Shown: piece by piece, positions 21,559 through 46,362 of the stretch
Layout of the letters: each line of letters opens with the position of its first letter
How positions within the stretch are numbered: position 1 is the stretch's first letter
Assembly: GCA_020632415.1 (NCBI GenBank)
Contig: JACKFO010000002.1
Coordinates: forward strand, 450,732-514,731
DNA: 64,000 nucleotides
Source: Candidatus Nomurabacteria bacterium
GTDB taxonomy: Bacteria > Patescibacteriota > Patescibacteriia > UBA1558 > GWA2-36-10
Direction of reading: 5' to 3'
The notes under the pieces: generated by a model
The model's database searches: none
Seen by the model: the letters and a program-made list of their open reading frames with translations, nothing else
What the model was told of the DNA's origin: nothing
Position numbers and translations under genes: made by a program

Positions 21559-23559
<2,001 letters not shown>

Positions 23560-23585: not shown

Positions 23586-24440
23586 TTAAAAACCTTTTTC
23601 TAAGTCTTGCTCTGAAAAAATTATGTAATTAAAAACATTGGAAGTCGGCGCATAAACCGGTAAACCAGCTGTAATGTGATAAATTGATTGTCGATAATGG
23701 CCACTAACTTTTACAGTTGCATAACCCGGTAAATAATCATCTCCATCTTTAGTTGGTGTAAATTTTAAGTAAGAAACATCAGAGTCTAAAGGACGGAAAG
23801 TAAAATAATAAAATTTATTATTATCAAGATCAGCGCTAACATGAGTATCGCAAGTATCCACGCCATTACTACAACCACAGGTAGTAAAAGTCTGTTTGGT
23901 ATTTGATTTTAAAGTACTACCAGACTTATACAAAGAAGTATAACTGATTTCTAAGCGATCTGAAGCATGTCCGCCTTGATAACAATCATCTATTGTCCAA
24001 TCTAATTTATAATCAGTGGGTAAATTTGTCGCTGCCGAAGGAATATCTGCTCCCGGTAAAGAAATTTCAGTTCTCACTGGGCTACTAGTAGCAATGTCAA
24101 AACTTTCAAAATAACTAGCCGTTGTTGTGGACAAAGTATTTATAAAACCTCTTTCATCGTCAATGACCACCGAATAACCATCATCAAGTTGATCAAAATA
24201 ATTAGTAAAATCTCCACTAATTTTAGAATATTTCAAATAATACAAAGCCTCTTCCATACCACTTTCCGTGACATAAAAAGCAACTATAGCATTATCAGAG
24301 TTGCGAGTCATTTTTACCTCACCAATAATCACCCTGCTTAAGGCAATCACCGAAACTGTCATTACCAGCAAAATCATTAAAGACATAAGCAAAACAACTC
24401 CTTGCTGATCTTTTAATTTTTCTTTTTCAAAAAAATACAT
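23586..24440 (-). CDS. PilX-like minor pilin or pilus-associated protein (PilX_N-type N-terminus)
   Basis: N-terminus QGVVLLMSLMILLVMTVSVIALSRVIIGEVKMTRNSDNAIVAFYVTESGMEEAL parallels the PilX N-domain consensus (membrane helix + ...R.S..EE.MAGN...). Confidence 0.5.
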   Translation of the reverse strand: MYFFEKEKLKDQQGVVLLMSLMILLVMTVSVIALSRVIIGEVKMTRNSDNAIVAFYVTESGMEEALYYLKYSKISGDFTNYFDQLDDGYSVVIDDERGFINTLSTTTASYFESFDIATSSPVRTEISLPGADIPSAATNLPTDYKLDWTIDDCYQGGHASDRLEISYTSLYKSGSTLKSNTKQTFTTCGCSNGVDTCDTHVSADLDNNKFYYFTFRPLDSDVSYLKFTPTKDGDDYLPGYATVKVSGHYRQSIYHITAGLPVYAPTSNVFNYIIFSEQDLEKGF

Positions 24441-24442
24441 TG

Positions 24443-25078
24443 TTATCTTTTATAAACTCGTGGTGAAACTGAAGTTTGCAAATTATAAGTCACTTGTTCA
24501 AAACTACGAGTGGCGTTCGTGCTTAGCTGCATTTCAATCGTTACTAATGGGTTTTGATTTCCACCGCCATCTTCTAGTGGATCAACTCCTGGTGCTGCTG
24601 GACTAACTAAAAAAAGGATGCTATCAATTACGCCTTGGTTTTGATTAATGTCAAAAATTACCCCACCCTTTGTCCAAACGCCAGCTTCTTTCACGAGATA
24701 ATTAATAACTTCTGGATTTCCACCGCCATCTGTTTCAACAGCAAAAGCCACGATAGTTCCGTCACTTTTTTCTAAAATTAAACACTGAGTAGTTTGAACA
24801 ACGGTAATCTCAGCATCACAATTAGAATAATTATAATAAACCTTATTACCCCTCACTTCCCTAGCCATACTTTCCAAAGCATACTGCGCGTCATTTAATA
24901 ACTTTTGCGCCACTTGCGTTCTGTCTTGGCTGTTTGAAAAAGCTAAATAAATACCACCGACCACTACCGACAACAATGAAAAAATAGCAACGGCGATCAA
25001 AACCTCCACCAAAGTCAAACCTGAGCTTTGATTTTTTAGTTTAAGTAATATTTTATTTTTAATCAATCTAGTTAACAT
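24443..25078 (-). CDS. Minor type IV pilin, PilW-like (class III signal, G|LTLVEVL)
   Basis: SGLTLVEVLIAVAIFSLL prepilin-type N-terminal helix with Glu at +5. Confidence 0.55.
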   Translation of the reverse strand: MLTRLIKNKILLKLKNQSSGLTLVEVLIAVAIFSLLSVVVGGIYLAFSNSQDRTQVAQKLLNDAQYALESMAREVRGNKVYYNYSNCDAEITVVQTTQCLILEKSDGTIVAFAVETDGGGNPEVINYLVKEAGVWTKGGVIFDINQNQGVIDSILFLVSPAAPGVDPLEDGGGNQNPLVTIEMQLSTNATRSFEQVTYNLQTSVSPRVYKR

Positions 25079-25691
25079 ACTCTCGCCAGTTATATAAATT
25101 TTCAATAACCTCTGTCAGGTGTCCTCTGCCTCTATCTTGCCAATAAACTTGAGAGCTAACTCTTAAACCAATCTTTTCTTCATAGTCTCCGCTACAAGTC
25201 AAAGAGCTAGAAATAAATGTCGCGCCTTGATCGTAAGAAGTAGCTACACTCTGATCAGCATCAAAACAAATTGCTTTCAAGACAATCATTCTGGCCAAAT
25301 CAAGTTCAATATCACCAGCAGCAGAATACACGGTTGGTTGACAAAGCTCATCGTCAAAACAATCCTCAATCGACATAGAACCAAAAAGTTGATTCAAGGA
25401 CGTATCATCATAATTAATAGTCGAGGTTCCATAACTCAAACCCTGGTCCCAAGTACAAGGTCCTGCGCCACAATCAATATTATTATCAATCTTTAGCCAA
25501 TTACTATCACGAATATTACGCACCAGCTCTACTCCTTCACGCGCTAAATTCGCCGCTAAAACACGATTGTAATTATCTCTAGCTGTATTTAAATTAGCCA
25601 AAGACAAAGTAAAAGCTCCCATAATTCCTATCGAAACCACAGCTAAAGCCAGAATCATCTCTAATAATGTAAATCCTTGATTATTTTTCAT
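25068..25691 (-). CDS. Minor type IV pilin, PilV-like
   Basis: MKNNQGFTLLEMILALAVVSIGIMGAF prepilin N-terminus. The helix+IGxxG pattern is typical of PilV. Confidence 0.6.
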   Translation of the reverse strand: MKNNQGFTLLEMILALAVVSIGIMGAFTLSLANLNTARDNYNRVLAANLAREGVELVRNIRDSNWLKIDNNIDCGAGPCTWDQGLSYGTSTINYDDTSLNQLFGSMSIEDCFDDELCQPTVYSAAGDIELDLARMIVLKAICFDADQSVATSYDQGATFISSSLTCSGDYEEKIGLRVSSQVYWQDRGRGHLTEVIENLYNWREYVN

Positions 25692-26339
25692 CTAATTATA
25701 TTGCACTCTAATATTCCCCCAAACATAGCCATCATCAGAAAGGTCTAAAATGTCTACCTGACTGGTCTGAAGATTGGCAGTATTTTTTAATATTATCTCT
25801 AAACTTTCATCAGCCGAATAACTAGTGGTAGCTGTATGTTCACTAGTAAAATTATAATAAAAAATATTTGTCCCTTCTCCTAAATCTTTTGGGTACACTG
25901 TAATATCATCATCGTAAAGATATTTTTTAATTTCTGCATCAGGAACAAAGTCCGGAGACGACTCACAATAGTTATTGCAATAAGCTGGACAGGTAGCAAT
26001 TAGCCCTTCGCAACCATAATCTTGATAACCAGCATGACCATTGTCAGCATAAATAGTATAAGAGCTCGGACTACTAGCATCATCAAAAAAAATACCATAA
26101 CCACCAATTGGAAAAGAATTGTTCTCATTGATTACTCGAGAGATTGTCAAATTCCTTAACTGCTTCAAATCAGCTGCGGTTTGTTCAGTTGCTTGATGTA
26201 ATTTTTCGGCATCGCTCAACCTGACTTGCACCACAAAAATACTAGTCATAATACCAATAATCGCAACAGCTACTAATAGCTCAATCAAAGTTGTGCCTAA
26301 ATGATTTCTTCTAAAGTCTACCATTTCCAAAAACTCCAA
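25692..26339 (-). CDS. Minor type IV pilin, FimT/FimU/GspH-like
   Basis: LGTTLIELLVAVAIIGIMTSIFVV prepilin-type N-terminus. First gene of the four-gene minor-pilin set. Confidence 0.5.
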   Translation of the reverse strand: MEFLEMVDFRRNHLGTTLIELLVAVAIIGIMTSIFVVQVRLSDAEKLHQATEQTAADLKQLRNLTISRVINENNSFPIGGYGIFFDDASSPSSYTIYADNGHAGYQDYGCEGLIATCPAYCNNYCESSPDFVPDAEIKKYLYDDDITVYPKDLGEGTNIFYYNFTSEHTATTSYSADESLEIILKNTANLQTSQVDILDLSDDGYVWGNIRVQYN

Positions 26340-27109
26340 TAAAAATTGATTAAAGTCTCTCCATAAAGCAAGACAATAAAAGTCGCTAAAGTCAAAAAAG
26401 TGCCAAAAGGCAATTTATCTCCCCAGTGTTTTTTCTTAAAAATTAACAAGCCAGAAGCAAACAGTCCGCCTAAAACATAAGCTAAAAATAAAGCAGTCAA
26501 CACCTGTGGCCAACCTAAAATCATGCCCATCAACAAACCAATGCGAACATCTCCTCCGCCAATCCATTTTCCATTTGACAAAACAAACTGTAACAAGAAA
26601 AATCCTCCACCAACTGCGGCAGCTAATAATAAATTTAACCAACTAAAACCAAAAAATAAATTTACCACAAAAGCAAAAGCAATGGCCGGTAAACTGACTT
26701 TATCTAAAATTAAATAATATTTTAAATCATAAACAAAAATTAACAACAAGAAAGCGAAGATAATCCACCAAAAAATTAAATGCGCAAAAATGCTTAGATT
26801 AGCCAGCTGAAAAATGGCAAGCTCATTGGTCTGAAAAATTTTCCAAAAGATCAAGACAAAGCCAATGGCTGTGGCTAGTTCTACCAAAAAATATTGCCAA
26901 GAAATTTTTGTCTTACAATAACGACATTTTCCTTTTAAAAAAACAAAACTAAACAACGGCACTAAATCTTGCGGAAAAAGACGATGTCCACAAAAAAGAC
27001 ATTTAGAAAATCCTTTAACAAAAGATTCAGCCCGATGAAGACGATAGATTACGACATTTAAAAAACTACCGACAAATAAGCCTAAAATAAAGACAAAAGC
27101 TACTAACAT
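26318..27109 (-). CDS. pilD: Prepilin leader peptidase / N-methyltransferase (A24 family)
   Basis: N-terminal tetracysteine motif (CLFCGH...CRYCKTKISWQY), eight TM segments, and GGGDVRIGLLMG containing the catalytic Asp. Confidence 0.85.
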   Translation of the reverse strand: MLVAFVFILGLFVGSFLNVVIYRLHRAESFVKGFSKCLFCGHRLFPQDLVPLFSFVFLKGKCRYCKTKISWQYFLVELATAIGFVLIFWKIFQTNELAIFQLANLSIFAHLIFWWIIFAFLLLIFVYDLKYYLILDKVSLPAIAFAFVVNLFFGFSWLNLLLAAAVGGGFFLLQFVLSNGKWIGGGDVRIGLLMGMILGWPQVLTALFLAYVLGGLFASGLLIFKKKHWGDKLPFGTFLTLATFIVLLYGETLINFYWSFWKW

Positions 27110-27157
27110 AGTAGCTTTATTATAACATTTTTAATAACAAAAGAAAAATAATCACAT

Positions 27158-27586
27158 CTAAACGCAACCGTCGATATTACAACTTATAATTTCCGAACCA
27201 TTAGTAGCCATTAAGGTCCAAGTATTTGTCTGAGGATTACTGGGATCACATTCTAAATAGCTAAAACCATTTTGCGCAATATTCGGCCAAGTGGTTACGC
27301 TACCATTACAAATAGCATGCCCAGACCATGGTATGTAATTATCATTACAATAACAAATACCTCCAGGACAAGCTCCAGTAAATCTAGCTGTCAACTCTTG
27401 ATCATCGTCATAGCACAAAAGAATCGCCGAAGATAAAGATGCTAAACTGTATTTAACAGCTGCTGTTTTAGCATTGTTTCTAGCTGAACTTAAATTAACT
27501 ACCGCCACTGACGATAAAATACCAATAATCGCAATTACGACTAACAACTCAACTAAAGTAAAACCTAAATTATTTATTTTTTTCAT
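27158..27586 (-). CDS. Type IV major pilin paralog 1
   Basis: MKKINNLG|FTLVELLVVIAIIGILSSVAVVNL class III signal, then a Cys-containing C-terminal globular region. Confidence 0.8.
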   Translation of the reverse strand: MKKINNLGFTLVELLVVIAIIGILSSVAVVNLSSARNNAKTAAVKYSLASLSSAILLCYDDDQELTARFTGACPGGICYCNDNYIPWSGHAICNGSVTTWPNIAQNGFSYLECDPSNPQTNTWTLMATNGSEIISCNIDGCV

Positions 27587-27598
27587 CGTAAATAATTA

Positions 27599-28039
27599 TT
27601 AAGACTGACAGCTCAGGGCTAAATTACTAAGCATGCGACATTCTCCTCCTCGCCAAGAATCCAGGCCCCACAATCCCCACTTATTTTTTAAATTAAACTT
27701 CAAAGTATAATGATTACCAGAACTCAAAAAACTGACTGGTCTTTTGAAATTTTCAACTTTCTGATAATAAGTCACCTCTCCTTTTTGGTTTAAGCCATTT
27801 TCTGTTAAAAAAGAAATAGTTTCTAAGTTTATTTCTTTGCTCTCTGGATAAATTTGAAATTTATCATAATATTTTTCCAAAGCTGTTGCAAAAACTTTGA
27901 CTTGTTCTACCAACTCTAAATCTTTAACTCGACTACGATCAAAAACTAATAAAGTGATTGTCGAAAAAACTAACAATAACAATATTGCCAATAAAATAAC
28001 TTTTACTTTTTTACTATAATTAAATAAGCTCATATTCAT
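27599..28039 (-). CDS. Bitopic membrane protein of unknown function, encoded between pilin paralogs
   Basis: N-terminal hydrophobic helix (ILLAILLLLVFSTITLLVF). No prepilin motif. Confidence 0.35.
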   Translation of the reverse strand: MNMSLFNYSKKVKVILLAILLLLVFSTITLLVFDRSRVKDLELVEQVKVFATALEKYYDKFQIYPESKEINLETISFLTENGLNQKGEVTYYQKVENFKRPVSFLSSGNHYTLKFNLKNKWGLWGLDSWRGGECRMLSNLALSCQS

Positions 28040-28053
28040 ATTATAGCAAAATT

Positions 28054-28083
28054 AAAAAACACCAGCTAGTGCTGGCGTTTTTA
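28054..28083 (-). terminator. Rho-independent terminator downstream of pilin paralog 2
   Basis: On the minus strand: ACGCCAGC-ACTA-GCTGGTGT followed by TTTTTT. Confidence 0.6.
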
Positions 28084-28094
28084 GGATACTCAAC

Positions 28095-28535
28095 TTAAGA
28101 AGTTGTACAACCAATTTGATCACAAATAATATTATTTGTTCCGTCAGTAGCCGCGTACTCCCAAACACCAGATATGTAATCAGAATTGCAATCTCCGGTA
28201 AAAGCCCAACCGCTAACTATATTTTCCAAAATTGGCCACCTAACATCTACACCACTTGCCTCGCAGACTAATTGACCACTAACCGGCGCTCCGCTTAATC
28301 CATCGCAATAAGTCGGACCAGATTCTTCAACGAGAAGATTATAATCTTCGTTAAAACACAATGAAACCAATGGCCTAAAAGAAGCCATGGTCTGTTCAAT
28401 TGCTGCTATTTTAGCCTTATCACGCGCAGAGTTTAAATTAACTACGGCAACTGATGATAAAATACCAATAATCGCAATAACGACCAGCAACTCAACTAAA
28501 GTAAAACCATTTTTTGTTAAATTTTTAATCTTCAT
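28095..28535 (-). CDS. Type IV major pilin paralog 2
   Basis: MKIKNLTKNG|FTLVELLVVIAIIGILSSVAVVNLNSAR. The N-terminus is near-identical to paralogs 1 and 3 at both protein and DNA level. Confidence 0.8.
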   Translation of the reverse strand: MKIKNLTKNGFTLVELLVVIAIIGILSSVAVVNLNSARDKAKIAAIEQTMASFRPLVSLCFNEDYNLLVEESGPTYCDGLSGAPVSGQLVCEASGVDVRWPILENIVSGWAFTGDCNSDYISGVWEYAATDGTNNIICDQIGCTTS

Positions 28536-29151: not shown

Positions 29152-29849
29152 TATGAAAATAAATTAAAACGTATTATGTGCCAAAAAGCAGCTAGACCAT
29201 CTTTCCAATTAATTTTCTTACCATCTTTATATGTTCTGCCATAATAAGAAATCCCAACCTCATAAATAACAATCTCTTTTTTGGCTATTCTCGCTGTAAT
29301 TTCTGGCTCAAAACCAAATCGGGTAGATTTTAACTTGGGGATAATATCAGCAATAACTTCTTTTTTAAAAAGCTTATAGCAAGTCTCCATATCTGTCAGA
29401 TTAATGTTGGTCAACATATTAGAAAACAAGGTTAAAATCCGATTTCCTAAAGAATGCCAAAAAAATAAAACTCGATGTGGACCTTTACCTAAAAAACGCG
29501 AACCATAAACAACGTCGGCCCCGTGCCTTAAAACTGGTTCCAAAAGAACTTGATAATCATTTGGATCGTATTCTAAATCAGCATCTTGGATTAACAAAAA
29601 ATCTCCGCTAGCCAGCTCCAATCCTTTTCTAACTGCTGCGCCTTTACCTTGATTTTTTTCTTGAATAAAAATCCTATATTTATCTTTTAAATTTTCTAAA
29701 ATTTCTCGAGTACCGTCAGTTGAGGCGTCGTCAATAATTAAAATTTCTTTTTCAATATCATCCAAAAAAACTGCCTCTATTTTTTCTAATAATAGTGGCA
29801 AAGTCTTAGCCTCATTAAAAACTGGAATAACAATTGATAATTTTTTCAT
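29151..29849 (-). CDS. Family 2 glycosyltransferase (dolichyl/polyprenyl-phosphate hexosyltransferase-like). Start placed at MKKLS; the longer track ORF runs into the upstream terminator.
   Basis: LSIVIPVFNE, IIDDASTDGT and the DADLEYDP DxD motif. Confidence 0.75.
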   Translation of the reverse strand: MKKLSIVIPVFNEAKTLPLLLEKIEAVFLDDIEKEILIIDDASTDGTREILENLKDKYRIFIQEKNQGKGAAVRKGLELASGDFLLIQDADLEYDPNDYQVLLEPVLRHGADVVYGSRFLGKGPHRVLFFWHSLGNRILTLFSNMLTNINLTDMETCYKLFKKEVIADIIPKLKSTRFGFEPEITARIAKKEIVIYEVGISYYGRTYKDGKKINWKDGLAAFWHIIRFNLFS

Positions 29850-29883
29850 CTCATAAATCATAGCAAAAAAGCAAATTTTAGAC

Positions 29884-29913
29884 AACAAAAAATCTCCCCA
29901 AATTGAGGAGATT
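29884..29913 (-). terminator. Rho-independent terminator downstream of pilin paralog 3
   Basis: On the minus strand: AAATCTCC-TCAATTTG-GGGAGATTT followed by TTTTTTG. Confidence 0.6.
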
Positions 29914-29934
29914 TTGTTTACATTATTTCTAAAA

Positions 29935-30336
29935 TTATGGACAAGCATTACCAGAAGCAGCGGTGCTACCAGAGCCTGTACTAGAAATACAATAATCATT
30001 ACCAGATTCTCCAGCATTATCAAGAGCAGCACTAACTGCCCAAGCATCAGCATTTCCGGTACAAGTGATATCAGCATTAACTAAACCACTTGTCGCCTGT
30101 GCTGAAGAAGTAGCACTAGAAACTGCTGAATCAGCGCAGAAACCAGTATAGTTGTTATGATCATTATAATAAATTTCACCAGCAGCAGCTAGTCCTGCCA
30201 AAGAGCCCTTTACGGCAGCAACCTTGGCCTTTGAACGAGCAGAGTTTAAATTAACTACGGCAACTGATGATAAAATACCAATAATAGCGATTACGACTAA
30301 CAACTCGACTAAAGTAAAACCTTTTTGATTTTTCAT
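29935..30336 (-). CDS. Type IV major pilin paralog 3 with a Ser/Thr/Ala/Gly-rich C-terminal region
   Basis: MKNQKG|FTLVELLVVIAIIGILSSVAVVNLNSAR. Strong SD GGAGGTG 6 nt upstream. The C-terminal half is low-complexity S/T/A/G-rich with a Cys pair. Confidence 0.8.
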   Translation of the reverse strand: MKNQKGFTLVELLVVIAIIGILSSVAVVNLNSARSKAKVAAVKGSLAGLAAAGEIYYNDHNNYTGFCADSAVSSATSSAQATSGLVNADITCTGNADAWAVSAALDNAGESGNDYCISSTGSGSTAASGNACP

Positions 30337-30372
30337 TGTTACACCTCCCCTCTTGGGTCAAACAATTAAAGT

Positions 30373-30406
30373 TTAAAGCTTGAGATCTCAAAGCTCTAAA
30401 GCTTTA
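30373..30406. promoter_or_regulatory. Imperfect palindrome/operator-like element upstream of pilin paralog 3, in the divergent intergenic region
   Basis: AAAGCTTGAGATCTCAAAGCTCTAAAGCTT: an inverted repeat centred on GAGATCTC, with three AAAGCT hexamers. Confidence 0.2.
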
Positions 30407-30473
30407 TTTAATTGTCTGGGATCTTAATTATTAAAGACAGAATTATTATAGCACTTTTTCTAAAAATTGACTA

Positions 30474-32741
30474 TTGTTGAAAAGGAAAAAATGCATTAAA
30501 CTAAGTATATCATATTTTATGACTCACATAAACACACTTATGAAAAAAATAATTTATCAAATTTTATTAATTATTTTTATTATTTTTCTTTTGCTTATTT
30601 CTTTTAGAAAAATATTTAGTAACGATTTTTGGTGGCACTTAAAGCTCGGCCAACTAGCCTGGGAAAACAAAGAATGGATCACTAAAGAAATGTTTTCTTT
30701 CACTAGATATAATATTGATTGGTTTAATAACACTCAAATATTTGATGTCAGTATTTGGCTAATCTATAAGCATTTTTCTTATTTAGGGCTCTTTATCTTT
30801 AAATTTTTATGTTATTTAACAACGTTTTTTCTACTCTGGAAAACGATAAAGTTAAAAAATAATAACTCTGGACTCTTATTTTTTGCATTTTTTTCAATCC
30901 TCTCTTTATTATTATTTAGGTCTCTCTATCGCCCAGAAATATTCACTTATCTTTATACGGCTTTTTATCTCTACGCTTTATACAAATATAAATATACTGG
31001 GGGAAAATTATTATACTTAATCCCATTAATTCAAATCCTCTGGGTCAACACTCATTTGAGTTTTGTCACCGGTCTAGCTTTGGTCGGTGTTTTCTTTGGT
31101 GGAGAATTAATCCGACATTTATTGAAAAATAAAAATTTAAAATTTTTAAAAAATAAATACCTTAAAACTTACTTTGTTATTTTAATTTTAACAATAATTG
31201 CAAATTTTATTAGTCCTTATGGCCTAAAAACTATTTCTTGGTTTTGGTGGATTTTTTCTTCGCAAGAAAGCTTAAAAAATGTCAGTGAGTGGAATACTCC
31301 AGCTAAAGATAGGCTTTTTAATTTGGCAGACATCGCTAGTCTACCATACATTATAATCACTTGGCTTACTTTATTTGTTTTAATCAAAAAAATAAAAAAT
31401 TTGATCAACAAAAAATACAGCTCCTTTTCAGCTTACCAAAATATTCCCTGGGAAGACCTTTTTTTGTTTCTGCTATTTTTATACCAAAGTCTAGTTGCCC
31501 TGCGATTTGCTTTGATTAGCACTATAATTTTTTCTATTATTTTAATCAAAAATTGGCCAAAAAATCAAAAAAATCATTGGCTAACAAAAATGCTCCCTGT
31601 TACAGCTTTGATTATTTTTATGCTCAATCTCAGTTATTTTGATCGAGCTCAATTTGGTTTAGGATACTTAGATCATCGATACCCAGAAAATGCTGTTAAA
31701 TTTATCAAAGAAAACAAAATTCCTGGAAATATGGCTAATGATTATAATAATGGCGGTTATTATATTTGGTCACTCTACCCTGAAAAAAAAATCTTCATGG
31801 ACGGCCGTACGCCAAATGTTTATGATGATTATTTTTACTGGCAATGGAGAAATCTTGCAAACGATAATCTTAGAACTCAAATAGTCGAAGACTACCAAAT
31901 TAATTTCTGGCTTTGGCCAAATAATACCTCTCTACCAACAACTTTATGGAATGATGAAAATTGGCAATTGATTTATTTTGATGATTTATCGACGATTTAT
32001 ATCAAAAATACGGAAGATAACCAAGAAATTATTGAAAAATTTTCTTACAAAAACTTCGCGCCTTATTTCAATGAAAAAAACATCACCGATATTTGCCAGG
32101 AAGAAAATCTCAAAGAAAATCCAGATCTAAAAAATAACTTAATCAGTGAATTAGAAAAAGGATTAACGATCAATCCTCAAAATTGGTTGCAATACAAAAA
32201 TTTAGCCCTAGTTTATCAAAACTGTCAATTTAACCCAGAAGATCAAACAAAAATCGTCGAAAACCTTAGCCAAGCTTTAAAAATAAATCCAAAAAATCAA
32301 CATTTATACTATTTATTAGGATTCTATTATTTGCAAAATAATCAAGATCAATTGGCTTTTGAAAATTTTAAAAAAGCTGGGAAAACTCAAGCACCGTACT
32401 TAATAGGCTTAGGGACAGCTCAATACAATTTAGGGCAAAACCGACAAGCTCTTAAAACTTTATTAAAAGCACGAAAAACTGCTGGACAAATAGACACTAA
32501 ATACTACCAAACTTTAGCTCGCGTTTACTACACCCTGGATAAATACAAGATGGCAATCGAATTTCACAATCGCTATCTTGACTTAAGTCAAGATTATTCA
32601 GCCGAAAGCTACACTGATTTAGCTCAAAGTTATTTTTATGATAATCAGACCGAAAAAGCACAGGAGTATCTAGATAAAGCTTTGGAACTCGATCCTGATT
32701 ATCCTTTGGCCTTAGAAATGCAAAAAGAATTAAACAAATAG
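30474..32741 (+). CDS. Polytopic membrane protein (about 12 TM) with a C-terminal TPR-repeat domain. Candidate GT-C-fold glycosyltransferase or O-oligosaccharyltransferase. The start is uncertain (possible Met at 30519 or 30540).
   Basis: N-terminal about 400 aa is highly hydrophobic with many predicted helices. The C-terminal about 250 aa has TPR-like repeats (LALVYQNCQ..., YYLLGFYYLQNNQDQLAFENFKKAG, YTDLAQSYFYDNQTEKAQEYLDKALELDPDY). It is encoded divergently from a pilin gene. Confidence 0.4.
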   Translation: MLKRKKCIKLSISYFMTHINTLMKKIIYQILLIIFIIFLLLISFRKIFSNDFWWHLKLGQLAWENKEWITKEMFSFTRYNIDWFNNTQIFDVSIWLIYKHFSYLGLFIFKFLCYLTTFFLLWKTIKLKNNNSGLLFFAFFSILSLLLFRSLYRPEIFTYLYTAFYLYALYKYKYTGGKLLYLIPLIQILWVNTHLSFVTGLALVGVFFGGELIRHLLKNKNLKFLKNKYLKTYFVILILTIIANFISPYGLKTISWFWWIFSSQESLKNVSEWNTPAKDRLFNLADIASLPYIIITWLTLFVLIKKIKNLINKKYSSFSAYQNIPWEDLFLFLLFLYQSLVALRFALISTIIFSIILIKNWPKNQKNHWLTKMLPVTALIIFMLNLSYFDRAQFGLGYLDHRYPENAVKFIKENKIPGNMANDYNNGGYYIWSLYPEKKIFMDGRTPNVYDDYFYWQWRNLANDNLRTQIVEDYQINFWLWPNNTSLPTTLWNDENWQLIYFDDLSTIYIKNTEDNQEIIEKFSYKNFAPYFNEKNITDICQEENLKENPDLKNNLISELEKGLTINPQNWLQYKNLALVYQNCQFNPEDQTKIVENLSQALKINPKNQHLYYLLGFYYLQNNQDQLAFENFKKAGKTQAPYLIGLGTAQYNLGQNRQALKTLLKARKTAGQIDTKYYQTLARVYYTLDKYKMAIEFHNRYLDLSQDYSAESYTDLAQSYFYDNQTEKAQEYLDKALELDPDYPLALEMQKELNK

Positions 32742-32791: not shown

Positions 32792-34006
32792 TTAACTAAT
32801 ACTTTGAGCAACTTTAAACATCGGTAACATAATAGCTGCCACCATCCCACCAACGCCGACGCCCATGACCATCAAAATCATCGGCTCTATCAAGGCTGTT
32901 AAACCATTAACCAAACTATCAATTTCCCGAGTATAAAAATCAGAAAGTTTTTCTAAAATTGAGTCCAACTTACCGGTCTGCTCACCAATACTCATCATTT
33001 GAGACAACATTTTTGGCATTAAATCAGATTTAGAAAAAACAGTGACAACAGAATTTCCATCTTCTACTTCCTTGATTGTCCCTAAGATTAAAGCACGATA
33101 AGCTTCGTTATCCACCACTTCAGCAGTAATTCTCAAGGCAGCTGAAACTGGCACGCCACCTCTGATCAAAGTCGAAAAACCACGAGCAAAACGAACGATA
33201 TAAATTTTCTGAAACAATGGCCCAAAAATAGGAACTTTTACTTTGGCAGTATCCCAAGCAATCTTACCACCGCCAGTTTTAGTCCAAGCTTTGAAAGCAA
33301 CAAACAAACCTACTGCCGTCCCGACAATTAACCACCAAAAGCTTTGCATAAAACTAGAAACGCCAATTAAAATTCTAGTTAAAAAAGGTAATTCTGCTCC
33401 CGAATCAATTAACATCTGAGTCATGTTTGGCACCACAAAAATCATCATCAAAAATCCCACCAAAATCATACCAGAAATAATAAAAACTGGATAAATCATC
33501 GCACCTTTAATTCGAGAGACCAAATCATAATCTTTTTCCATCTGATCGGCTAAATATTGCAAAACCTCATCCAATTTACCAGATGTTTCACCAGATTTAA
33601 CCATCGCCACATAAAAACGACTAAAGACTTTTGGATGTTTACCAAGAGCTGATGATAATTTCATACCACCATCAACGTCATTGGCCATCTCCATGATGTC
33701 TTCAATAAAAATAGGATTGACAGTCTGCTGAGCTAAAATTTTTAAAGCCTGAACAATCGGGACAGTAGAAGAAACCATTACTGACAATTGACGAGAAAAA
33801 ATAACAATATCTTTATTTTTAACTCGACCAATATTGATATTAAAACCTTTTTTGGCCTTTGATCCTCCTTCTTGCAAAGACAAAACAATCAGACCCTTGT
33901 CTTCTAACAATTCAATTGCCGATGATTCTGAAACAGCCTCGACATTTCCAGTTGTCACCGAGCCAGATTGTCCTCTGGCTCGATATTTAAAAGTAGGCAT
34001 AGCCAA
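32792..34006 (-). CDS. pilC: Type IV pilus assembly platform protein PilC (GspF family)
   Basis: Two T2SS-F domains and three TM segments. Typical about 400 aa length. Confidence 0.85.
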   Translation of the reverse strand: MAMPTFKYRARGQSGSVTTGNVEAVSESSAIELLEDKGLIVLSLQEGGSKAKKGFNINIGRVKNKDIVIFSRQLSVMVSSTVPIVQALKILAQQTVNPIFIEDIMEMANDVDGGMKLSSALGKHPKVFSRFYVAMVKSGETSGKLDEVLQYLADQMEKDYDLVSRIKGAMIYPVFIISGMILVGFLMMIFVVPNMTQMLIDSGAELPFLTRILIGVSSFMQSFWWLIVGTAVGLFVAFKAWTKTGGGKIAWDTAKVKVPIFGPLFQKIYIVRFARGFSTLIRGGVPVSAALRITAEVVDNEAYRALILGTIKEVEDGNSVVTVFSKSDLMPKMLSQMMSIGEQTGKLDSILEKLSDFYTREIDSLVNGLTALIEPMILMVMGVGVGGMVAAIMLPMFKVAQSIS

Positions 34007-34035: not shown

Positions 34036-35106
34036 TTATTTAAAATTTCTTCTAAAACTATCTGCGTCTGATGCTTGTAAAATAGCATCATTAGCACTAA
34101 TTTCCCCAACTTTGACTAACTCTAGCAAAGATTTGTCTAAATTAATCATTCCTTCTTCTTTGGAAGTCTGCATAATACTATTTAGCTGATAGAGACGATT
34201 ATCTTTAATAATCGCTTGAACAGCTGAGGTCATAGTCAAAACTTCATAAGCCAAGCTCAAACCACCACCAATTTTTGGTAATAATCTTTGAGCTACTACT
34301 CCCAATAAAACTTGCGACAAAACATCTTGGCCCCAAATCTTTTTTTCTGGAGATAAATTACTAATAAATCTTTCTAAAGCTGAGATCACTGTGTCGGCAT
34401 CCATCACGGCAATTACTAATTTTCCACTCTCTGCTGTTTGTAACAACATTTCCTCTAAGCCATCTTCTGACAACATGCCAACTACCACAACATCAACGTC
34501 TTCATCTAAGGTATCTTCTAGGCCCTTTAAAAAGCTACCGGTATCTTTTCCGATCTCTCTTTGTTCAATAATGCATTGGTTATTAGCTAGTAAATACTCT
34601 ATTGGTTTTTCTAAAGTCTGAACATGCAAACCTTTGTTACGATTTAAAGTCTCTAGCAAGGAAGCAACCGAGGTTGTTCTTCCGCTCCCAAAAGGACCAG
34701 TGATAATTATCAAGCCTCTTTCTTTGGTAATTAGTTGTGTCAAAACTTGAGGCAAACCAAGATCTTTTGGCGAACGAATCAACTGAGGAATAATTCTTAA
34801 AGAAATAGCAACATAACCTTTTTGATAAAAAACCCTAGCTCTAAATCTAACTCGATTTGCCCAAGAATAAACAGTCACTACTTCTCGAGATGCTTCCAAA
34901 TTTTTTTTATCTGTTTCCGAAAGAAAACCATCTACCATGGCCAACAAAAAATCTGGTGTCAAAACCTGCTCTTCCGTTAAAGTAACCAATTTACCATCAA
35001 TACGCAAAACAGGATAATTACCAGCCGTTAAATGAACGTCAGTTGCTCGACGTTCAGCTGCTAAATTTAAAATTTTATTTACCAATAAAGTTTCAGTAGT
35101 AGACAT
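34036..35106 (-). CDS. PilT-family hexameric ATPase paralog with degenerate catalytic motifs (likely pseudo-ATPase)
   Basis: PilT-like N-domain (ATDVHLTAGNYPVLRIDG...) and core. Walker A is GPFGSGRTTS (Arg replaces the canonical Lys). The Asp box/Walker B is DVVVVGMLSED instead of DVILVGEMRD (catalytic Glu lost). The His box is VMDAD instead of TLHT. Confidence 0.7.
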   Translation of the reverse strand: MSTTETLLVNKILNLAAERRATDVHLTAGNYPVLRIDGKLVTLTEEQVLTPDFLLAMVDGFLSETDKKNLEASREVVTVYSWANRVRFRARVFYQKGYVAISLRIIPQLIRSPKDLGLPQVLTQLITKERGLIIITGPFGSGRTTSVASLLETLNRNKGLHVQTLEKPIEYLLANNQCIIEQREIGKDTGSFLKGLEDTLDEDVDVVVVGMLSEDGLEEMLLQTAESGKLVIAVMDADTVISALERFISNLSPEKKIWGQDVLSQVLLGVVAQRLLPKIGGGLSLAYEVLTMTSAVQAIIKDNRLYQLNSIMQTSKEEGMINLDKSLLELVKVGEISANDAILQASDADSFRRNFK

Positions 35107-35118: not shown

Positions 35119-35493
35119 TTACTTACTTAAGATGCCTTTGATTTTAGCGACAACTTCACTCGGCACAAAATGAGCTTTGATTAAATAATCTTCCGCTCCA
35201 AGATCCAAACATTTATCAATATGTTCTTTTTGAGAAAAGTTAGTCAAAATCAAAACTGGAATATTTTTGGTTTTCTCATCGGCTTTTAGATTTCTCAAAA
35301 CCTCAAAACCGTCCATTTCTGGCAAATTTAAATCCAATAAAATAAAATCTGGTAACTCTTTTTGAGCTAACTTCAAACCAGCTGTGCCGGTCATGGCTGT
35401 CAAAACATTAAAATCTTCCAATTCTAATTTGGCAGCATACATTTGAGACAAAAAGTCATCATCCTCCACAATAAGTACTCTTACTTGATCCAT
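35119..35493 (-). CDS. Single-domain CheY/PilH-like response regulator embedded in the pilus ATPase operon
   Basis: VLIVEDDD, LLDLNLPEMDG (phospho-acceptor Asp), ILT (Thr) and KAHF (Lys) receiver signatures. 124 aa. Confidence 0.75.
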   Translation of the reverse strand: MDQVRVLIVEDDDFLSQMYAAKLELEDFNVLTAMTGTAGLKLAQKELPDFILLDLNLPEMDGFEVLRNLKADEKTKNIPVLILTNFSQKEHIDKCLDLGAEDYLIKAHFVPSEVVAKIKGILSK

Positions 35494-35497: not shown

Positions 35498-37240
35498 TTA
35501 TCCTTTACTTACACGTAAAATTTCTTCTACCGTTGTTAAACCTAAGGCAGCTTTGATTACGCCATCTTGATCCATTGTGATAAAGTTTTGTTTGGCCAGC
35601 TCTGCCTCCACTGCTTGACGATCAAAACCCTTGGCGACAATGTCTTTCATTTCTTTGGTGATGTCAATGGCCTCAACAATCGCCAAACGACCCTTGTAGC
35701 CAGTTCCACCACACTGAGCGCAACCTTCGCCACGATAAAAAGTATATTTTCCTTTTTTGGAACCACCATAAAAAGAAGATTCTGGAATTGTTTCCATAGT
35801 TTGTTTAATCTCAGCTAAAACATTATCTGGTAATTTTTCTTCCTTTTTACATTTTTCACAAATTTTTCTTACTAAACGTTGAGCAATTACCACATTTAAA
35901 GTACTGGCCAACAAAAATGGCTCAATATGCATATCAAACATACGAGGAATAGCACCAAGAGCATCGTTGGTATGCAAAGTAGATAAAACAAAGTGACCAG
36001 TAAGACCAGCATGAATGGAAAGTTCCGCTGTTTCATTATCACGAATCTCTCCGACCATGATGATATCTGGGTCTTGTCGAAGTAATGCTCTTAAACCACT
36101 AGCAAAAGTAAATCCTACTTCTGGCCTAACTTGAGACTGGTTAACTCCCGGAACATAATACTCAACCGGATCTTCCAAAGTTGCAATATTAACCCCTTCT
36201 TGATTCAAAGAGCTTAAGGCCGCAAATAAAGTCGTTGATTTACCAGAACCAGTCGGGCCAGTTACCAAAAACATGCCATTTGGTTTTTGAATATTCTTCA
36301 TTGCCCTTTTGCCACTTTCACCCATAAAACCAAGCTCTTCAAAAGTTGGCGCTTTTTCTGGAGTTTCCAAAATACGCATTACCACCTTTTCGTTGCCCAT
36401 CAAAGGAATAGTGGAAATACGGAAATCGACGTCTTTGTTGTGAATTTTGATTCGAATACGACCATCCTGTGGAATACGAGTTTCATCAATTTTCAAATTA
36501 GACATAACCTTAATACGCGAAACCAAAGCTGAATGAACATAAATTGGTAAAACTATCGTTGTGTGCAAAACACCGTCAATACGATAACGAATTTTACTTT
36601 GGTTACCAACTGGCTCAATATGAATATCCGAGGCCCTTCCTTCAATCGCATGCCTTAAAACCACTGAAACAATCTTAGAAACTGGAGCAGATTTAATAAC
36701 TTCCGTAAAACCTTTTCCATCATCATCATCAATAGTTTCATCTTTGGGCGCAAAAATTGCCTCAGCAGTATCTAGAGCTGCTCCCACCTCTTCACCTAAA
36801 GTCTCGTATTGTTTTAAAGCTGCACGATAACTATCTTCAGAAATAATATAAAATTTTATATTGTACTGATTTTTTCTAGCCAAAAAATTTAAAGCTTCCA
36901 TGGCTTTTAAATTTCCTGGATCGACTAAACCAGCTTCGATTTTCTTACCATCTTTATTAAAAACGACCATGCGGTAATTTTCAGCTAAATCTTGTGGTAA
37001 GATATTTAAAATTTCTGAATTAATAACTTTACCAGAAAGATTGATATATTCCATATCAAAAAAAACCGCCTTGGCTTGCGTCCAATCTTCATCAGAAACT
37101 AAAATTTTGCGCCTCAAATCTTTTTCTAATTCAGAAAAAGAACTGGCTTTGTTATTTAATAATTCTTGATATTGTTGGTCATTAATGAGTCTTTTTTCTT
37201 GTAAAAAACTCAATAATTTAAGTATTTCTTTTTTTGTCAT
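35498..37240 (-). CDS. pilB: Type IV pilus extension ATPase PilB (GspE family)
   Basis: N-terminal GSPII_E domain and canonical Walker A VTGPTGSGKSTT. Asp box DPDIIMVGEIRD, His box STLHTND, tetracysteine motif CEKC...CAQC. Confidence 0.9.
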   Translation of the reverse strand: MTKKEILKLLSFLQEKRLINDQQYQELLNNKASSFSELEKDLRRKILVSDEDWTQAKAVFFDMEYINLSGKVINSEILNILPQDLAENYRMVVFNKDGKKIEAGLVDPGNLKAMEALNFLARKNQYNIKFYIISEDSYRAALKQYETLGEEVGAALDTAEAIFAPKDETIDDDDGKGFTEVIKSAPVSKIVSVVLRHAIEGRASDIHIEPVGNQSKIRYRIDGVLHTTIVLPIYVHSALVSRIKVMSNLKIDETRIPQDGRIRIKIHNKDVDFRISTIPLMGNEKVVMRILETPEKAPTFEELGFMGESGKRAMKNIQKPNGMFLVTGPTGSGKSTTLFAALSSLNQEGVNIATLEDPVEYYVPGVNQSQVRPEVGFTFASGLRALLRQDPDIIMVGEIRDNETAELSIHAGLTGHFVLSTLHTNDALGAIPRMFDMHIEPFLLASTLNVVIAQRLVRKICEKCKKEEKLPDNVLAEIKQTMETIPESSFYGGSKKGKYTFYRGEGCAQCGGTGYKGRLAIVEAIDITKEMKDIVAKGFDRQAVEAELAKQNFITMDQDGVIKAALGLTTVEEILRVSKG

Positions 37241-37246: not shown

Positions 37247-37615
37247 TTATTTTTGCACCTCTGCCTCTGGATTAGCAAAAGGATAAGAATTACCCAAATT
37301 AGTTTTGGTGTTAATAAAAGTATTTATTTCTAAATCCAAACCCTGATATTGAGGATCATCTTTTACTTTTTCCAAAATACTTTTGGCTGTGCTCTCTAAA
37401 GGAAAGTACTCCAAATTTTTTTCAGCTAAAAGTTTGATTCTTCTTATTTTAGCTTCTTGAATAATTTCGTCATTGCTTAAGGGCGCTATTTCTTTATTAT
37501 TTAATAAAGAAAAAACAAACCATGCACCAAAAATCAAAAGCACAGCAATGATTATAACGATTAAAAGATTAGATTTTTTTTCACCTTTTTCCATAATAAA
37601 ATTATTTTGCGACAA
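37247..37615 (-). CDS. Bitopic membrane protein, unknown (possible pilus assembly accessory, PilP-position)
   Basis: N-terminal TM helix then a soluble domain, between pilO-like and pilB. Confidence 0.3.
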   Translation of the reverse strand: MSQNNFIMEKGEKKSNLLIVIIIAVLLIFGAWFVFSLLNNKEIAPLSNDEIIQEAKIRRIKLLAEKNLEYFPLESTAKSILEKVKDDPQYQGLDLEINTFINTKTNLGNSYPFANPEAEVQK

Positions 37616-38276
37616 AATAAGTTTTGATTGTAAAATCCATTGTCAAAGAAGATTCGCCTCCTTCGACTCCTGAGAAATTAACCGACTCTACATCCATCAA
37701 ACGTAAATTGCTCTCCAAATCATTTAAGTATTCTTTAAAAAGATCGTAAGGATTTTTGTTAGAAGTATCAATTAGCTCGCTATCTTGAGCAACGGACATG
37801 TTGATGCTAATCGAGTTCAAAGAGCTCCCGCTTTCTAAAGTACCTTCAGCTTCAGCCGAATCAGTTTTCGCTAGCGCCACTTCTTCTTGTGAAAAATCTA
37901 CTCCCTGCAAAATCAAACCTCGATTGATTGCCAAACGTTCTGCCAAAACAAAAAGCTCAGCGATCTCTGGATTTTGTGGAATAATTTTTTCTAGTCTTCT
38001 TAAGTCATTATTTCTTTGAGTTTTAACTGAATTAAATTGATATTCCAAGTCAGTCACTTTCTGAATCAAAGCCTTAACTTCAGCTTCTTTGGCTTGCACC
38101 TCTTCGACGCCTTGACTAGCCTCTGTAATCGCGCTAATCCGCGGTCTGAGTAGAAAAAAATAGCCAAAAGACAAGGTGGTCAAAACAATCAATAATAAAA
38201 CCAACCACAAATTTTTATTAGCCAATAACAAAGATGCTGATGGTTGCTCAAATTTTATTTCCGATTTTTCTGCCAT
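37602..38276 (-). CDS. PilO-like type IV pilus assembly protein
   Basis: Short N-terminus, TM helix, coiled-coil, then an alpha/beta domain. Position is immediately after pilN. Confidence 0.5.
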   Translation of the reverse strand: MAEKSEIKFEQPSASLLLANKNLWLVLLLIVLTTLSFGYFFLLRPRISAITEASQGVEEVQAKEAEVKALIQKVTDLEYQFNSVKTQRNNDLRRLEKIIPQNPEIAELFVLAERLAINRGLILQGVDFSQEEVALAKTDSAEAEGTLESGSSLNSISINMSVAQDSELIDTSNKNPYDLFKEYLNDLESNLRLMDVESVNFSGVEGGESSLTMDFTIKTYFVAK

Positions 38277-38279: not shown

Positions 38280-39266
38280 TTATTTTGCTTGTTGATAATA
38301 AAATAAATTTGGATTCAAAGTTAAAGAAATGTTGAAACTAACACTAGCATCAGTCAAAGCTGCAGCAGAAATATCCACGTCTGTGACGAATTCTTGAGCC
38401 TGCTCTTCTTGCAAAACCTTAAGCTGTTTGGCGACTGTGTAATAGTCAGGAGCAACAGCGTCTAAGGTCAAAGCACCATTATTAACTGCCGCAAAACCAG
38501 TATAAGACACGTCATTTAAAGTGTATTTTTCTAACAAAGCAAAAAAGTTAGTCCAGTAAATATGCTGAGTCAAAGCCTCATAAACCAAGCTAATTTCTTT
38601 ACCAGTTTGGTTAATCTCTTTGCTAATATCTTCAAATTCTAACAATTTAGCTTCTATCTGAGCAATATTATTTGCTTTGTTGACTTGATTACTGCTCAAA
38701 TTAGTACTAGTTGCCAAAAGACCAAAGTAAAGAACCACCAAAATACCTAAAGAGGCAACAAAGGCTGTGATAACTAAAGTGCTAATTTGTTTCCAACTCT
38801 TAATCTTGGCTGAAGTAGGCACCAAATCAACACCTTCGGCTGAATCAATAAATCTTGCTCTGATATTTTTTTCTGGTTGATGAAATTTACCCTCTACTTT
38901 TTCCTCTGCTACTTCATTTAATTCAAAACCACTTGTTCTAATTGGTCTATCTTCTGAGCTTGAAATTTCTGGTTTCGGAGTATTATCAATTGGCGCTGGA
39001 ATAGTATTTTCTTGAGGTTTTTCTTCTACTGGCAAAGGCTTAAAATTATTTTCTTCAATTTCTGGTTTTTCTTTTTGCTTATTGTTCAAACGATTGGCAA
39101 AATTAGCCATCCATGATCCATGGCTACCACTTTCTTCTCCTGTGACAGTTGACTCTTGTTTTTTTGGAATATTTAAATCAGGCGCTTGTTCAGCGCTAAG
39201 ATTATTCGCCTTCATTTCTTTCTGGCGTAAATCTTCTGGCATTAAATTTATATTTTCTTCAGCCAT
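38280..39266 (-). CDS. PilN-like protein with a long low-complexity cytoplasmic insertion
   Basis: The extreme N-terminus MAEENINLMPED matches the conserved PilN INLLP PilM-binding motif. A single TM follows at about residue 175-197, then a periplasmic domain. Confidence 0.65.
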   Translation of the reverse strand: MAEENINLMPEDLRQKEMKANNLSAEQAPDLNIPKKQESTVTGEESGSHGSWMANFANRLNNKQKEKPEIEENNFKPLPVEEKPQENTIPAPIDNTPKPEISSSEDRPIRTSGFELNEVAEEKVEGKFHQPEKNIRARFIDSAEGVDLVPTSAKIKSWKQISTLVITAFVASLGILVVLYFGLLATSTNLSSNQVNKANNIAQIEAKLLEFEDISKEINQTGKEISLVYEALTQHIYWTNFFALLEKYTLNDVSYTGFAAVNNGALTLDAVAPDYYTVAKQLKVLQEEQAQEFVTDVDISAAALTDASVSFNISLTLNPNLFYYQQAK

Positions 39267-39276: not shown

Positions 39277-40479
39277 TTAAATATCACGCATTGCTAGACC
39301 AATAGAAGCGGCCATTCTTGGCCCAATTTCTTGGAGCACTGGCTTTAAATCCAAAGGATAAACTATCCTGTCCCAAGGATCACCGATGATCACGGGTAAA
39401 CCTAATAACTCTGATAAATATTTTGGTAAATTTGGTAAAAAAGAACTGCCACCAGCTAGAATAATTTTTTCAATCTGTGACTCACCTTGTCTTTGATAAA
39501 GATCAAAAACGTACTTAATTTCATTAATAATTGGGTTTAAAGAATTTTGGATTGTATTTGGCACCGAACGATTTCCTACTGTTGTTAAGCCAAAATCTCT
39601 TTTGAATTGCTCTGCTCGATCGACATTAACATTCATGCTATTCATGATCGATTTAGTGATCAGATTTCCGCCAGTATCAATGCCCCTGTTTAAAATCGGC
39701 ACGCCCTCTTCAATGACACAAACATCGGTATTATTTGCGCCGATATCAACAATCATTACGCTAGACATGTCATTGCCCATCAAAGAACGAGAAAGGGCAA
39801 AGGCTTCGGTTTCCAAACTTAATAAATTTAAATTTGTACGTTTAAAAATATCTAGATATCTAGCCACTAAATTTTTTGGAGCAGCTGTTAACAAAATTCG
39901 ATAATTTTTTGCCCCTAAAACTCCACGATTAACCACTTCCTCTACTGGACCATTTTTTTCTGCTTCTTTTTTTGCTGTCTCTTCAGCCTCTGAATCTTCC
40001 TCTGAAGAATCTTCATCTTTTGTTTTTTTACTAAAAATGCTTCCTAATTTTCCAGTTAAATCAGCGCTTGCCTTTGGATCGTTAGCGACTTCTTTTTTAT
40101 TCAAAATTTTCCAGTCCAAAATCATTTCTTCAATTGGCAAAGGAATAAATTTTTTGGCTTCCCACTTGATCGCTGAAGACAGGTCTTTTTTTGGCATGGG
40201 TGGCAAAGAAATGATCGAAGTAAAAACAGAAAAAGTTGGCAAGGCAGCAATAGCTTGTCGTGATTCAATTCTAGCTTTTTTAACAATATGCTTAATATAA
40301 TCAGCAATTAACTGATTATTTTTCTCTGTTGCAGCGGATAAAATATTAGTATTAATATCAGCGTAGCCATAGGTCTTTAGCTTTGCTTGGCCTTTATAAC
40401 TTTCTAGCTCAACAATTTTAACACTGGTTGTCCCAATATCTACACCCAAATAGCTATTTACCGTAGAAAATAATTGCAT
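39277..40479 (-). CDS. pilM: Type IV pilus assembly ATPase-fold protein PilM (actin-like), with an acidic low-complexity insertion
   Basis: LGVDIGTTSVKIVEL phosphate-1 motif, actin-like fold motifs, and an inserted DEDSSEEDSEAEETAKKEAEK segment. Confidence 0.8.
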   Translation of the reverse strand: MQLFSTVNSYLGVDIGTTSVKIVELESYKGQAKLKTYGYADINTNILSAATEKNNQLIADYIKHIVKKARIESRQAIAALPTFSVFTSIISLPPMPKKDLSSAIKWEAKKFIPLPIEEMILDWKILNKKEVANDPKASADLTGKLGSIFSKKTKDEDSSEEDSEAEETAKKEAEKNGPVEEVVNRGVLGAKNYRILLTAAPKNLVARYLDIFKRTNLNLLSLETEAFALSRSLMGNDMSSVMIVDIGANNTDVCVIEEGVPILNRGIDTGGNLITKSIMNSMNVNVDRAEQFKRDFGLTTVGNRSVPNTIQNSLNPIINEIKYVFDLYQRQGESQIEKIILAGGSSFLPNLPKYLSELLGLPVIIGDPWDRIVYPLDLKPVLQEIGPRMAASIGLAMRDI

Positions 40480-42567: not shown

Positions 42568-42611
42568 TAAAAATAAATCTTAATTTGTTTTATTATAACA
42601 TGTTTGTTAAC

Positions 42612-42644
42612 AAAATAAAAACAACCGCGTCAGACGCGGTTGTT
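42612..42644 (-). terminator. Rho-independent terminator (palindrome CAACCGCGTCAGACGCGGTTG, also present at 1111-1131)
   Basis: ACAACCGCGTC-AGA-CGCGGTTGT flanked by an A-run (a U-run on the minus strand). Confidence 0.65.
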
Positions 42645-42658
42645 TAAATTAAGTAAAT

Positions 42659-44635: not shown

Positions 44636-44742
44636 ATTTTTTATTTTTCAATAATCTCTTTTTATTATACTAAAATTTAGCAAAAATAACAAATCCAGAC
44701 AAAATAAATTACCTGGATTGTTAAAAAAATTTAAAATTTTAT

Positions 44743-46266: not shown

Positions 46267-46310
46267 AATTTTATTTTTATTAACTATATTATAACACAAA
46301 ACTCTCTGAA

Positions 46311-46346
46311 TAAAAAACACCGCAACTTAAATCAGTTGCGGTGTTT
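46311..46346 (-). terminator. Rho-independent terminator downstream of fibre paralog C
   Basis: Perfect 12-bp stem AACACCGCAACT-TAAATC-AGTTGCGGTGTT with a flanking A-run. Confidence 0.65.
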
Positions 46347-46362
46347 TAAAATTTAAATTATT

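Follow-up and report, generated by a model that had tools for sequence, protein, structure and literature searches.

The locus and the identity of the PilT-like protein

The stretch of DNA analysed here (hereafter the window) covers 64 kb of the 842-kb genome of a Candidatus Nomurabacteria bacterium, a member of the Candidate Phyla Radiation (CPR, Patescibacteria), and carries a type IV pilus operon in which the place of the retraction ATPase PilT is taken by an unusual gene. On the strength of its sequence, the product can most fittingly be called a PilT variant of pseudo-ATPase-like type: the residues associated with hydrolysis have been replaced, most of those that bind the nucleotide are retained, and the same state is conserved throughout a large family of CPR proteins.

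34036..35106, minus strand: pilT-like gene, a catalytically degenerate PilT orthologue, open reading frame (ORF) of 356 aa (NCBI MCB9802861.1)

The assignment to PilT, made in the original prediction from the type and size of the protein, is well founded. In a phmmer search of the PDB the top match was Aquifex aeolicus PilT (2ewv, E = 8e-72, residues 7-352), and an AlphaFold2 (AF2) model built with 92 homologues as input (mean pLDDT 92.2) matched Geobacter metallireducens PilT4 in Foldseek with TM scores of 0.84-0.91, followed by Thermus thermophilus PilT2, PilU (9n32), A. aeolicus PilT, and Pseudomonas aeruginosa PilT. By this model the protein has the PilT fold, and the PilT architecture of an N-terminal PAS-like domain and a RecA-like ATPase domain within about 350 aa is present. 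The family profiles gave low scores, with 80 bits for Pfam T2SSE and 303.9 bits for TIGR01420, the latter below both the curated cut-off of 319.1 and the 427-443 bits of canonical CPR PilTs. The name given by PGAP is the generic 'TadA', because the sequence hallmarks of the PilT/PilU family and the TIGR01420 cut-off failed. Four hallmarks are missing in all (the Walker A lysine, the Walker B glutamate, the His-box histidines, and a score above the TIGR01420 cut-off), and the fold, the size, and the operon, with pilB and pilC in the same locus, are those of PilT/PilU.

Catalytic motifs and residue conservation

Motifs were aligned to solved PilT structures, and replacements are numbered from P. 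aeruginosa PilT to the window protein. The P. aeruginosa reference sequence used for this has K136, E163, E204, H222, and H229 where the published numbering puts them, and the replacements derived from it agree with a separate alignment to 2ewv.

34669-34698, minus strand: Walker A, GPFGSGRTTS (K136 to R143; P-loop T132 to F139)
34594-34617, minus strand: Asp box, TLEKPIEY (D160 to K167; E159 and E163 kept)
34462-34500, minus strand: Walker B, DVDVVVVGMLSED (catalytic E204 to M211; R206 to S213; D207 to E214)
34390-34434, minus strand: His box, AESGKLVIAVMDADT (H222 to K229; H229 to D236; T220 to S227)
34201-34224, minus strand: AVQAIIKD, in place of the PilT-specific AIRNLIRE helix

The original prediction held that all three catalytic signatures are degenerate, which is right for the residues of hydrolysis and overstated for the protein as a whole, most of whose nucleotide-binding residues are kept. 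The exchange of the invariant Walker A lysine for arginine and the loss of the His-box histidines were both borne out by the alignment. The stretch that had been named 'Asp box/Walker B' is the Walker B only; it has indeed lost the catalytic glutamate, reading GMLSED against the canonical GEMRD, and position 204 is variable across the degenerate family. The true Asp box lies apart and is altered too, at D160 only, a position occupied in the family by K, R, Q, and other residues next to an invariant E159 and E163. In the AIRNLIRE helix, A288 and I293 are kept, and the changes of R294 to K and of E295 to D are conservative. The divergence is specific to this gene and not compositional, as had been claimed, for the adjacent PilB keeps all its canonical motifs (GPTGSGKST, LEDPVEY, VGEIRD, and TGHFVLSTLHTND, plus a Cys4 motif).

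The activity of PilT is described as requiring the Walker A lysine, the Walker B glutamate, and residues of the Asp and His boxes (PMC5065972). In P. aeruginosa, twitching is abolished in the mutants E204A, which lacks the catalytic glutamate, and H229A, which lacks the histidine of the gamma-phosphate; in G. metallireducens numbering, the proposed catalytic and proton-relay set comprises E204, H230, T221, and T133, with H230 adjoining E204 in the structure (PMC6858323).

Scoring of the degenerate family at 84 near-invariant positions of canonical PilT showed that 45 are retained, among them the P-loop glycines (G130, G135), E159, E163, Q175, R176, D181, D196, D198, E219, and G221. The N-domain arginines R80, R82, and R97 are also kept, as are the Mg/nucleotide ligands E163, T144, and D203 and the P-loop Ser/Thr, and T138 is present in 76% of the family, the window protein included. 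The other 39 positions are lost and cluster from Walker B to the region past the His box, the canonical histidine being found in 0% of the family at both the H222 and the H229 positions. New residues have become conserved in turn: R143 and F/Y139 (100% each, with Phe or Tyr at the P-loop T132 position in 116 of 116 aligned single-domain members), W258 (98%), S102 (97%), E214 (94%), S242 (92%), S227 (91%), and K229 (90%). A binding scaffold that is kept, a hydrolysis set that is replaced, and constraints that are new would be expected of a re-purposed nucleotide-binding protein rather than of a relic.

The identical protein is encoded in three assemblies, namely the NCBI entry and two independent Logan assemblies (SRR12358675 and SRR14234111, on contigs of 21.7 kb and 2.9 kb), and the GSGR Walker A recurs, together with E-x-P-I-E-Y, ESG[KR]L, and M[DN]xxS, in every one of the 120 closest homologues, which extend to 47% identity. 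A sequencing or reading-frame error, named beforehand as what could overturn the prediction, is ruled out by these two results. Against two orthologous loci with 85-88% protein identity, the ratio of nonsynonymous to synonymous substitutions (dN/dS) of the pilT-like gene was 0.063-0.087, values that are approximate with dS at about 1-1.7 and that are indistinguishable from those of its neighbours (0.068-0.083 for pilB, 0.053-0.076 for pilC, and equal for the response regulator gene). The pilT-like gene is under purifying selection.

The pilus operon and its slot for PilT

39277-40479, minus strand: pilM
38280-39266, minus strand: pilN-like gene
37602-38276, minus strand: pilO-like gene
37247-37615, minus strand: small ORF in the pilus operon
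35498..37240, minus strand: pilB, extension ATPase with an MshEN domain and canonical motifs
35119..35493, minus strand: single-domain CheY-like response regulator (RR; Pfam Response_reg, 88 bits)
32792..34006, minus strand: pilC, platform protein with two T2SSF domains
within 23586..28535, minus strand: pilin/pseudopilin genes (N_methyl motif) and a PilX_N protein
27599-28039: ORF in the pilin cluster without Pfam hit, assigned by position only
26318-27109, minus strand: pilD, prepilin peptidase
21559-23547: ligA, followed by gatA, past the pilin cluster

The genes are ordered pilM, pilN, pilO, small ORF, pilB, RR, pilT-like, and pilC, followed downstream by pilins, pilD, more pilins, the PilX_N gene, ligA, and gatA. 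The same slot is occupied by a canonical PilT in other genomes of the Parcubacteria group, as at locus L003, where the order is pilMNO-x-pilB-RR-pilT-pilC-pilin-pilD-pilins-ligA-gatCA. Degenerate-type loci with the order of the window include L006-L008, L018-L031, and L098-L099, among others, and the arrangement of pilM, pilN, pilO, and the small ORF is shared by L001, L006-L008, and L099; distributions and locus counts taken from the GTDB scan and the other large scan hold, here and below, among the matches listed. Since the pilB-RR-pilT-pilC slot holds a canonical PilT elsewhere, the window gene is the positional counterpart of PilT and not an extra paralogue, and the term 'paralog' used for it in the original prediction has to be given up in view of L003 and of the GTDB and metagenome loci. 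The RR has an intact phospho-acceptor site (D11-13, D54, T84, K106); the ORFs of the window that were scanned included no histidine kinase as its partner.

Two further parts of the locus deserve mention. Directly upstream of pilM, four consecutive large ORFs without Pfam match (40600-47967; 655, 658, 525, and 534 aa) may encode pilus-associated surface proteins, and similarly large unannotated genes stand upstream of pilM in L001, L006, and L099. Between pilC and the pilins (28591-32741) lie a 755-aa tetratricopeptide repeat (TPR) protein on the opposite strand, a GT2 glycosyltransferase, and an S-adenosylmethionine (SAM) methyltransferase, an insert that possibly serves pilin glycosylation or modification; similar inserts are present in L098 and L007 and there are none in L006 and L099. 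Elsewhere in the window, a TraG/VirB4-like P-loop ATPase (P-loop_TraG, AAA_10, DUF87) was found at 59637-61505, flanked by ORFs without Pfam matches, and a nucleotide-salvage cluster at 5611-9658 comprises a thymidylate kinase, a thymidine kinase, a 450-aa ThyX-domain protein, and a dNMP-kinase-like P-loop protein, which is typical of the CPR dependence on scavenged nucleotides.

A conserved family in the CPR

When 1.84 billion representatives were searched exhaustively, proteins with the degenerate motifs and a length of about 355 aa made up many clusters at 50% identity, canonical PilTs standing at about 35-39% identity. In a neighbour-joining (NJ) tree, 91 of 97 degenerate sequences fell in one clade, whose sister is the clade of canonical CPR PilTs. 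What had been presented as a single degenerate paralogue is thus not a one-off loss; it belongs to a large, ancient clade of Patescibacteria with newly conserved residues of its own. Among the matches listed in the GTDB scan, the degenerate type occurs in records of Parcubacteria, Komeilibacteria, Buchananbacteria, Jacksonbacteria, Falkowbacteria, and Uhrbacteria, and the canonical type in Moraniibacteriota, Saccharibacteria, and Microgenomates. For TM7x, a PilT with conserved Walker boxes has been described (PMC11623550).

A LigA tree from the same loci places the window organism in a clade of nine genomes that are all of the degenerate type; deeper in that tree the two types interleave. A single origin of the degenerate clade, which would suit the NJ PilT tree, was not retained given this interleaving, and the history may instead involve a single origin combined with operon transfer, ancient paralogy, or long-branch attraction. 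Neither a naturally degenerate clade of PilT nor this feature in the CPR is described in the literature that our search covered. Its sequence signature (GSGR, ESG[KR], and M[DN]xxS) could serve as a rule that splits the CPR 'PilT' annotations into two putative functional classes.

Some other observations were made during the survey. A different degenerate PilT-like subfamily (L060, 10001-12139; L032, L033, and L034, around 10001-11074) keeps the Walker A lysine and E204, has H222 replaced by R and H229 by E, and adjoins neither pilB nor pilC at the four loci; in L060, which was checked with Pfam, the gene is paired with pilM between der-pth and mfd-dprA, and the ORF layout of L034 is similar. 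Also encountered were tandem 'double PilT' proteins, in which two PilT modules are combined in a chain of about 700-1000 aa (P0122, P0124, P0127-P0130, P0133, P0146, and P0183). Fifteen GTDB records (L019, L022, L024, L027, L029, L033, L035, L044, L049-L052, L054, L056, and L057) are entitled 'uncultured Gammaproteobacteria' or 'uncultured Bdellovibrionales' and yet carry CPR-type pilus loci and PilT, and the titles of these TPA_asm metagenome-assembled genomes look wrong. Canonical PilT genes on IMG/VR contigs catalogued as viral (L009-L017), some of them adjoining pilB, are probably on cellular fragments or in prophage-adjacent regions.

Discussion

Homologous to an active enzyme, devoid of the catalytic residues, and nevertheless maintained by purifying selection, the window protein has the profile of a putative pseudoenzyme, and the suggestion of a pseudo-ATPase or regulatory PilT made in the original prediction is a reasonable reading of the motif loss, the selection, and the conservation across the family. 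The explanation that we tentatively favour, at somewhat less than an even chance, is that of a nucleotide-binding PilT with poor or no hydrolysis that would act as a non-motor subunit for retraction or as a switch. A PilT-type protein, probably hexameric, would fill the position of the retraction ATPase in the type IV pilus machine. As the nucleotide-binding scaffold is kept and the hydrolysis apparatus is lost, it would be predicted to bind nucleotide and to hydrolyse it very slowly or not at all. This non-motor subunit may dock on PilC/PilM in competition with PilB, and its docking would stop extension and either permit a slow, low-force, motor-independent disassembly of the pilus or gate the machine. 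The adjacent CheY-like RR might set which of the ATPase-like rings is engaged; pilB and pilT have a gene of RR size between them in 28 of 31 degenerate-type loci and in 11 of 33 canonical CPR loci, counts that ignore phylogeny, and its presence in the former suggests such control over ring engagement.

There are precedents for parts of this scheme. The ATPase-dead PilT of Vibrio cholerae (K136A/E204A) keeps a structural role, and delta-pilT cells of this species still retract their pili, slowly (PMC6821130). For gonococci, a preprint describes a PilT-independent, low-force retraction of about 5 pN (bioRxiv 10.1101/497933). In its most far-reaching form, which we consider possible and yet rather doubtful, the proposal would extend to a large part of the Patescibacteria (Nomura-, Komeili-, Buchanan-, Jackson-, Falkow-, and Uhrbacteria and their relatives), whose sole type IV pilus would be devoid of a hydrolysing retraction motor and would carry in its slot a nucleotide-sensing, non-hydrolysing PilT ring that, under control of the RR, displaces PilB and triggers motor-independent retraction, that is, a 'clutch' type IV pilus machine that evolved naturally.

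Several points weigh against a non-hydrolysing PilT subunit, among them the blindness of the RR counts to phylogeny. An arginine can in principle contact phosphates. Divergence relative to PilB in the same loci is 1.24-fold for the degenerate PilT and 0.72-fold for the canonical CPR PilT, and the constraint on the former is relaxed about 1.7-fold, still being strong. In V. cholerae without PilU, the ATPase-dead PilT behaves as a pilT deletion (PMC6821130), so that no case is known in which a dead PilT promotes retraction alone. The remaining two points, an acidic residue that changes position within the family and the extent of the genome outside the window, each bear on an alternative of their own.

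The first alternative is an active ATPase with a rewired site, in which Arg143 replaces the Walker A lysine and a relocated carboxylate, such as D236 at the His-box position and spatially near the lost E204, serves as general base or Mg ligand, so that retraction would be powered, perhaps slowly. The replacements are indeed conserved and not random, with R143 in all members and D or E at position 229 in most of them. An acidic residue occupies exactly one of the positions 204 and 229 in 141 of 183 degenerate sequences (77%), and on the tree the switch between them has arisen independently many times (Fisher p = 6e-4 on maximal clades). This pattern could reflect a relocated catalytic carboxylate, and thus a rewired site rather than a dead one; the adjacency of H230 and E204 in the G. 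metallireducens structure and the retention of the ligands E163, T144, and D203 point the same way. However, the pattern also fits a carboxylate that pairs with R143 in a salt bridge and simply fills the gamma-phosphate pocket, neither position is acidic in 15% of the clade, and five or six separate catalytic or relay residues have changed at once. The exchange of lysine for arginine in Walker A generally abolishes hydrolysis in P-loop ATPases, we know of no active natural GxxGxGR[ST] secretion ATPase, and none was found in our literature search. On this evidence we hold a rewired ATPase to be unlikely.

The second alternative, to which we also give a low probability, is that of an adaptor: the degenerate PilT would dock at the machine and recruit a canonical PilT- or PilU-type ATPase encoded elsewhere, as PilU in V. 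cholerae drives retraction through a catalytically dead PilT and fails to do so when PilT is missing (PMC6821130). The window represents 64 kb of 842 kb, and a canonical partner may lie elsewhere in the genome. Nature also offers tandem proteins, P0133 and P0183, in which a degenerate N-terminal PilT module (GSGR, His box lost) is fused to a C-terminal one, which has the canonical form in P0133 and is half-degenerate in P0183. These fusions were discarded as Rosetta-stone evidence that the two types are partners, for their N-terminal domains are not members of the degenerate clade and are no closer to it than to canonical PilT, and they are therefore independent events. Against an adaptor stands also the result of tblastn with the PilT-like protein and PilB as queries, by which no second T2SSE-type ATPase besides these two was found in the window; the description of the gene as the only PilT-family ATPase in the operon is accordingly upheld. 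Nor was a second T2SSE ATPase seen near 32 GTDB degenerate-type loci or near L006-L008, out to a distance of 10 kb. Wherever the contig permitted the check, canonical CPR PilT loci had pilB and/or pilC adjacent (all of the GTDB ones and 18/18 metagenome ones), and among these loci there was no orphan canonical pilT able to accompany a degenerate-type operon. No contig was shared by the 120 degenerate clusters listed and the 240 canonical ones listed out of more than 8000, which is a weak test, and the patterns of the GTDB scan, matching only 2 of 120 canonical CPR PilTs, give no valid test for a second PilT. These negatives on a second PilT are weak.

A decaying gene or an assembly artefact without function, to which the loss of motifs regarded as invariant and the Pfam T2SSE score of only 80 bits might point, is hardly credible and is refuted by the selection and conservation data, that is, by a dN/dS of 0.06-0.09 like that of the neighbours, the identical sequence in three assemblies, and intact full-length orthologues in many candidate phyla, as well as by the high-confidence fold.

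Type IV pili are considered central to the episymbiosis of the CPR and to their DNA uptake, and papers on CPR genomes list PilT as a retraction ATPase and as proof of retraction or twitching (e.g., PMC5220378, PMC11809585). Because an apparently hydrolysis-deficient PilT is conserved across many of the ultrasmall CPR/Patescibacteria, a non-standard mode of retraction or of regulation is probable for their pili. Should the PilT of a major CPR clade be of the hydrolysis-incompetent kind only, metabolic reconstructions have over-read the annotation, and retraction in these organisms would have to be passive, driven by PilB, or absent. Such a clade would also be a natural experiment on the roles of PilT beyond the use of ATP, such as docking, displacement of PilB, and signalling, which have so far been approached only by means of engineered Walker mutants.

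Compared with canonical PilT (P. aeruginosa, A. aeolicus, G. metallireducens PilT4; TIGR01420), the window protein has the same length, two-domain fold, and hexamer-type architecture, occupies the same slot between pilB and pilC, and shares the N-domain arginines, the P-loop glycines, E159/E163, the QRE motif, and the Walker B aspartates. Unlike it, the window protein is devoid of K136, E204, H222, H229, D160, and T132, has Ser for T220 and AVQAIIKD for AIRNLIRE, scores below the TIGR01420 cut-off, and evolves faster relative to PilB. The engineered ATPase-dead PilTs of V. cholerae and Acinetobacter baylyi (K136A, E204A) likewise lack hydrolysis residues and still have a role at the machine (PMC6821130). 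However, they work only via PilU, which was not seen at the window locus, and the window protein represents a natural, selected state with seemingly compensating conserved residues. PilU, which is among the Foldseek matches (9n32), has a PilT-like fold as well; it keeps the canonical Walker A and B and needs PilT, neither of which applies to the window protein, which moreover sits in the PilT slot itself. Retraction without a hydrolysing PilT is seen in delta-pilT V. cholerae and gonococci. The CpaF of Tad pili is bifunctional and retracts them as a single motor. These motor-independent or single-motor systems have an empty PilT slot or none at all, whereas the slot in the window is occupied by a PilT that is conserved and non-canonical.

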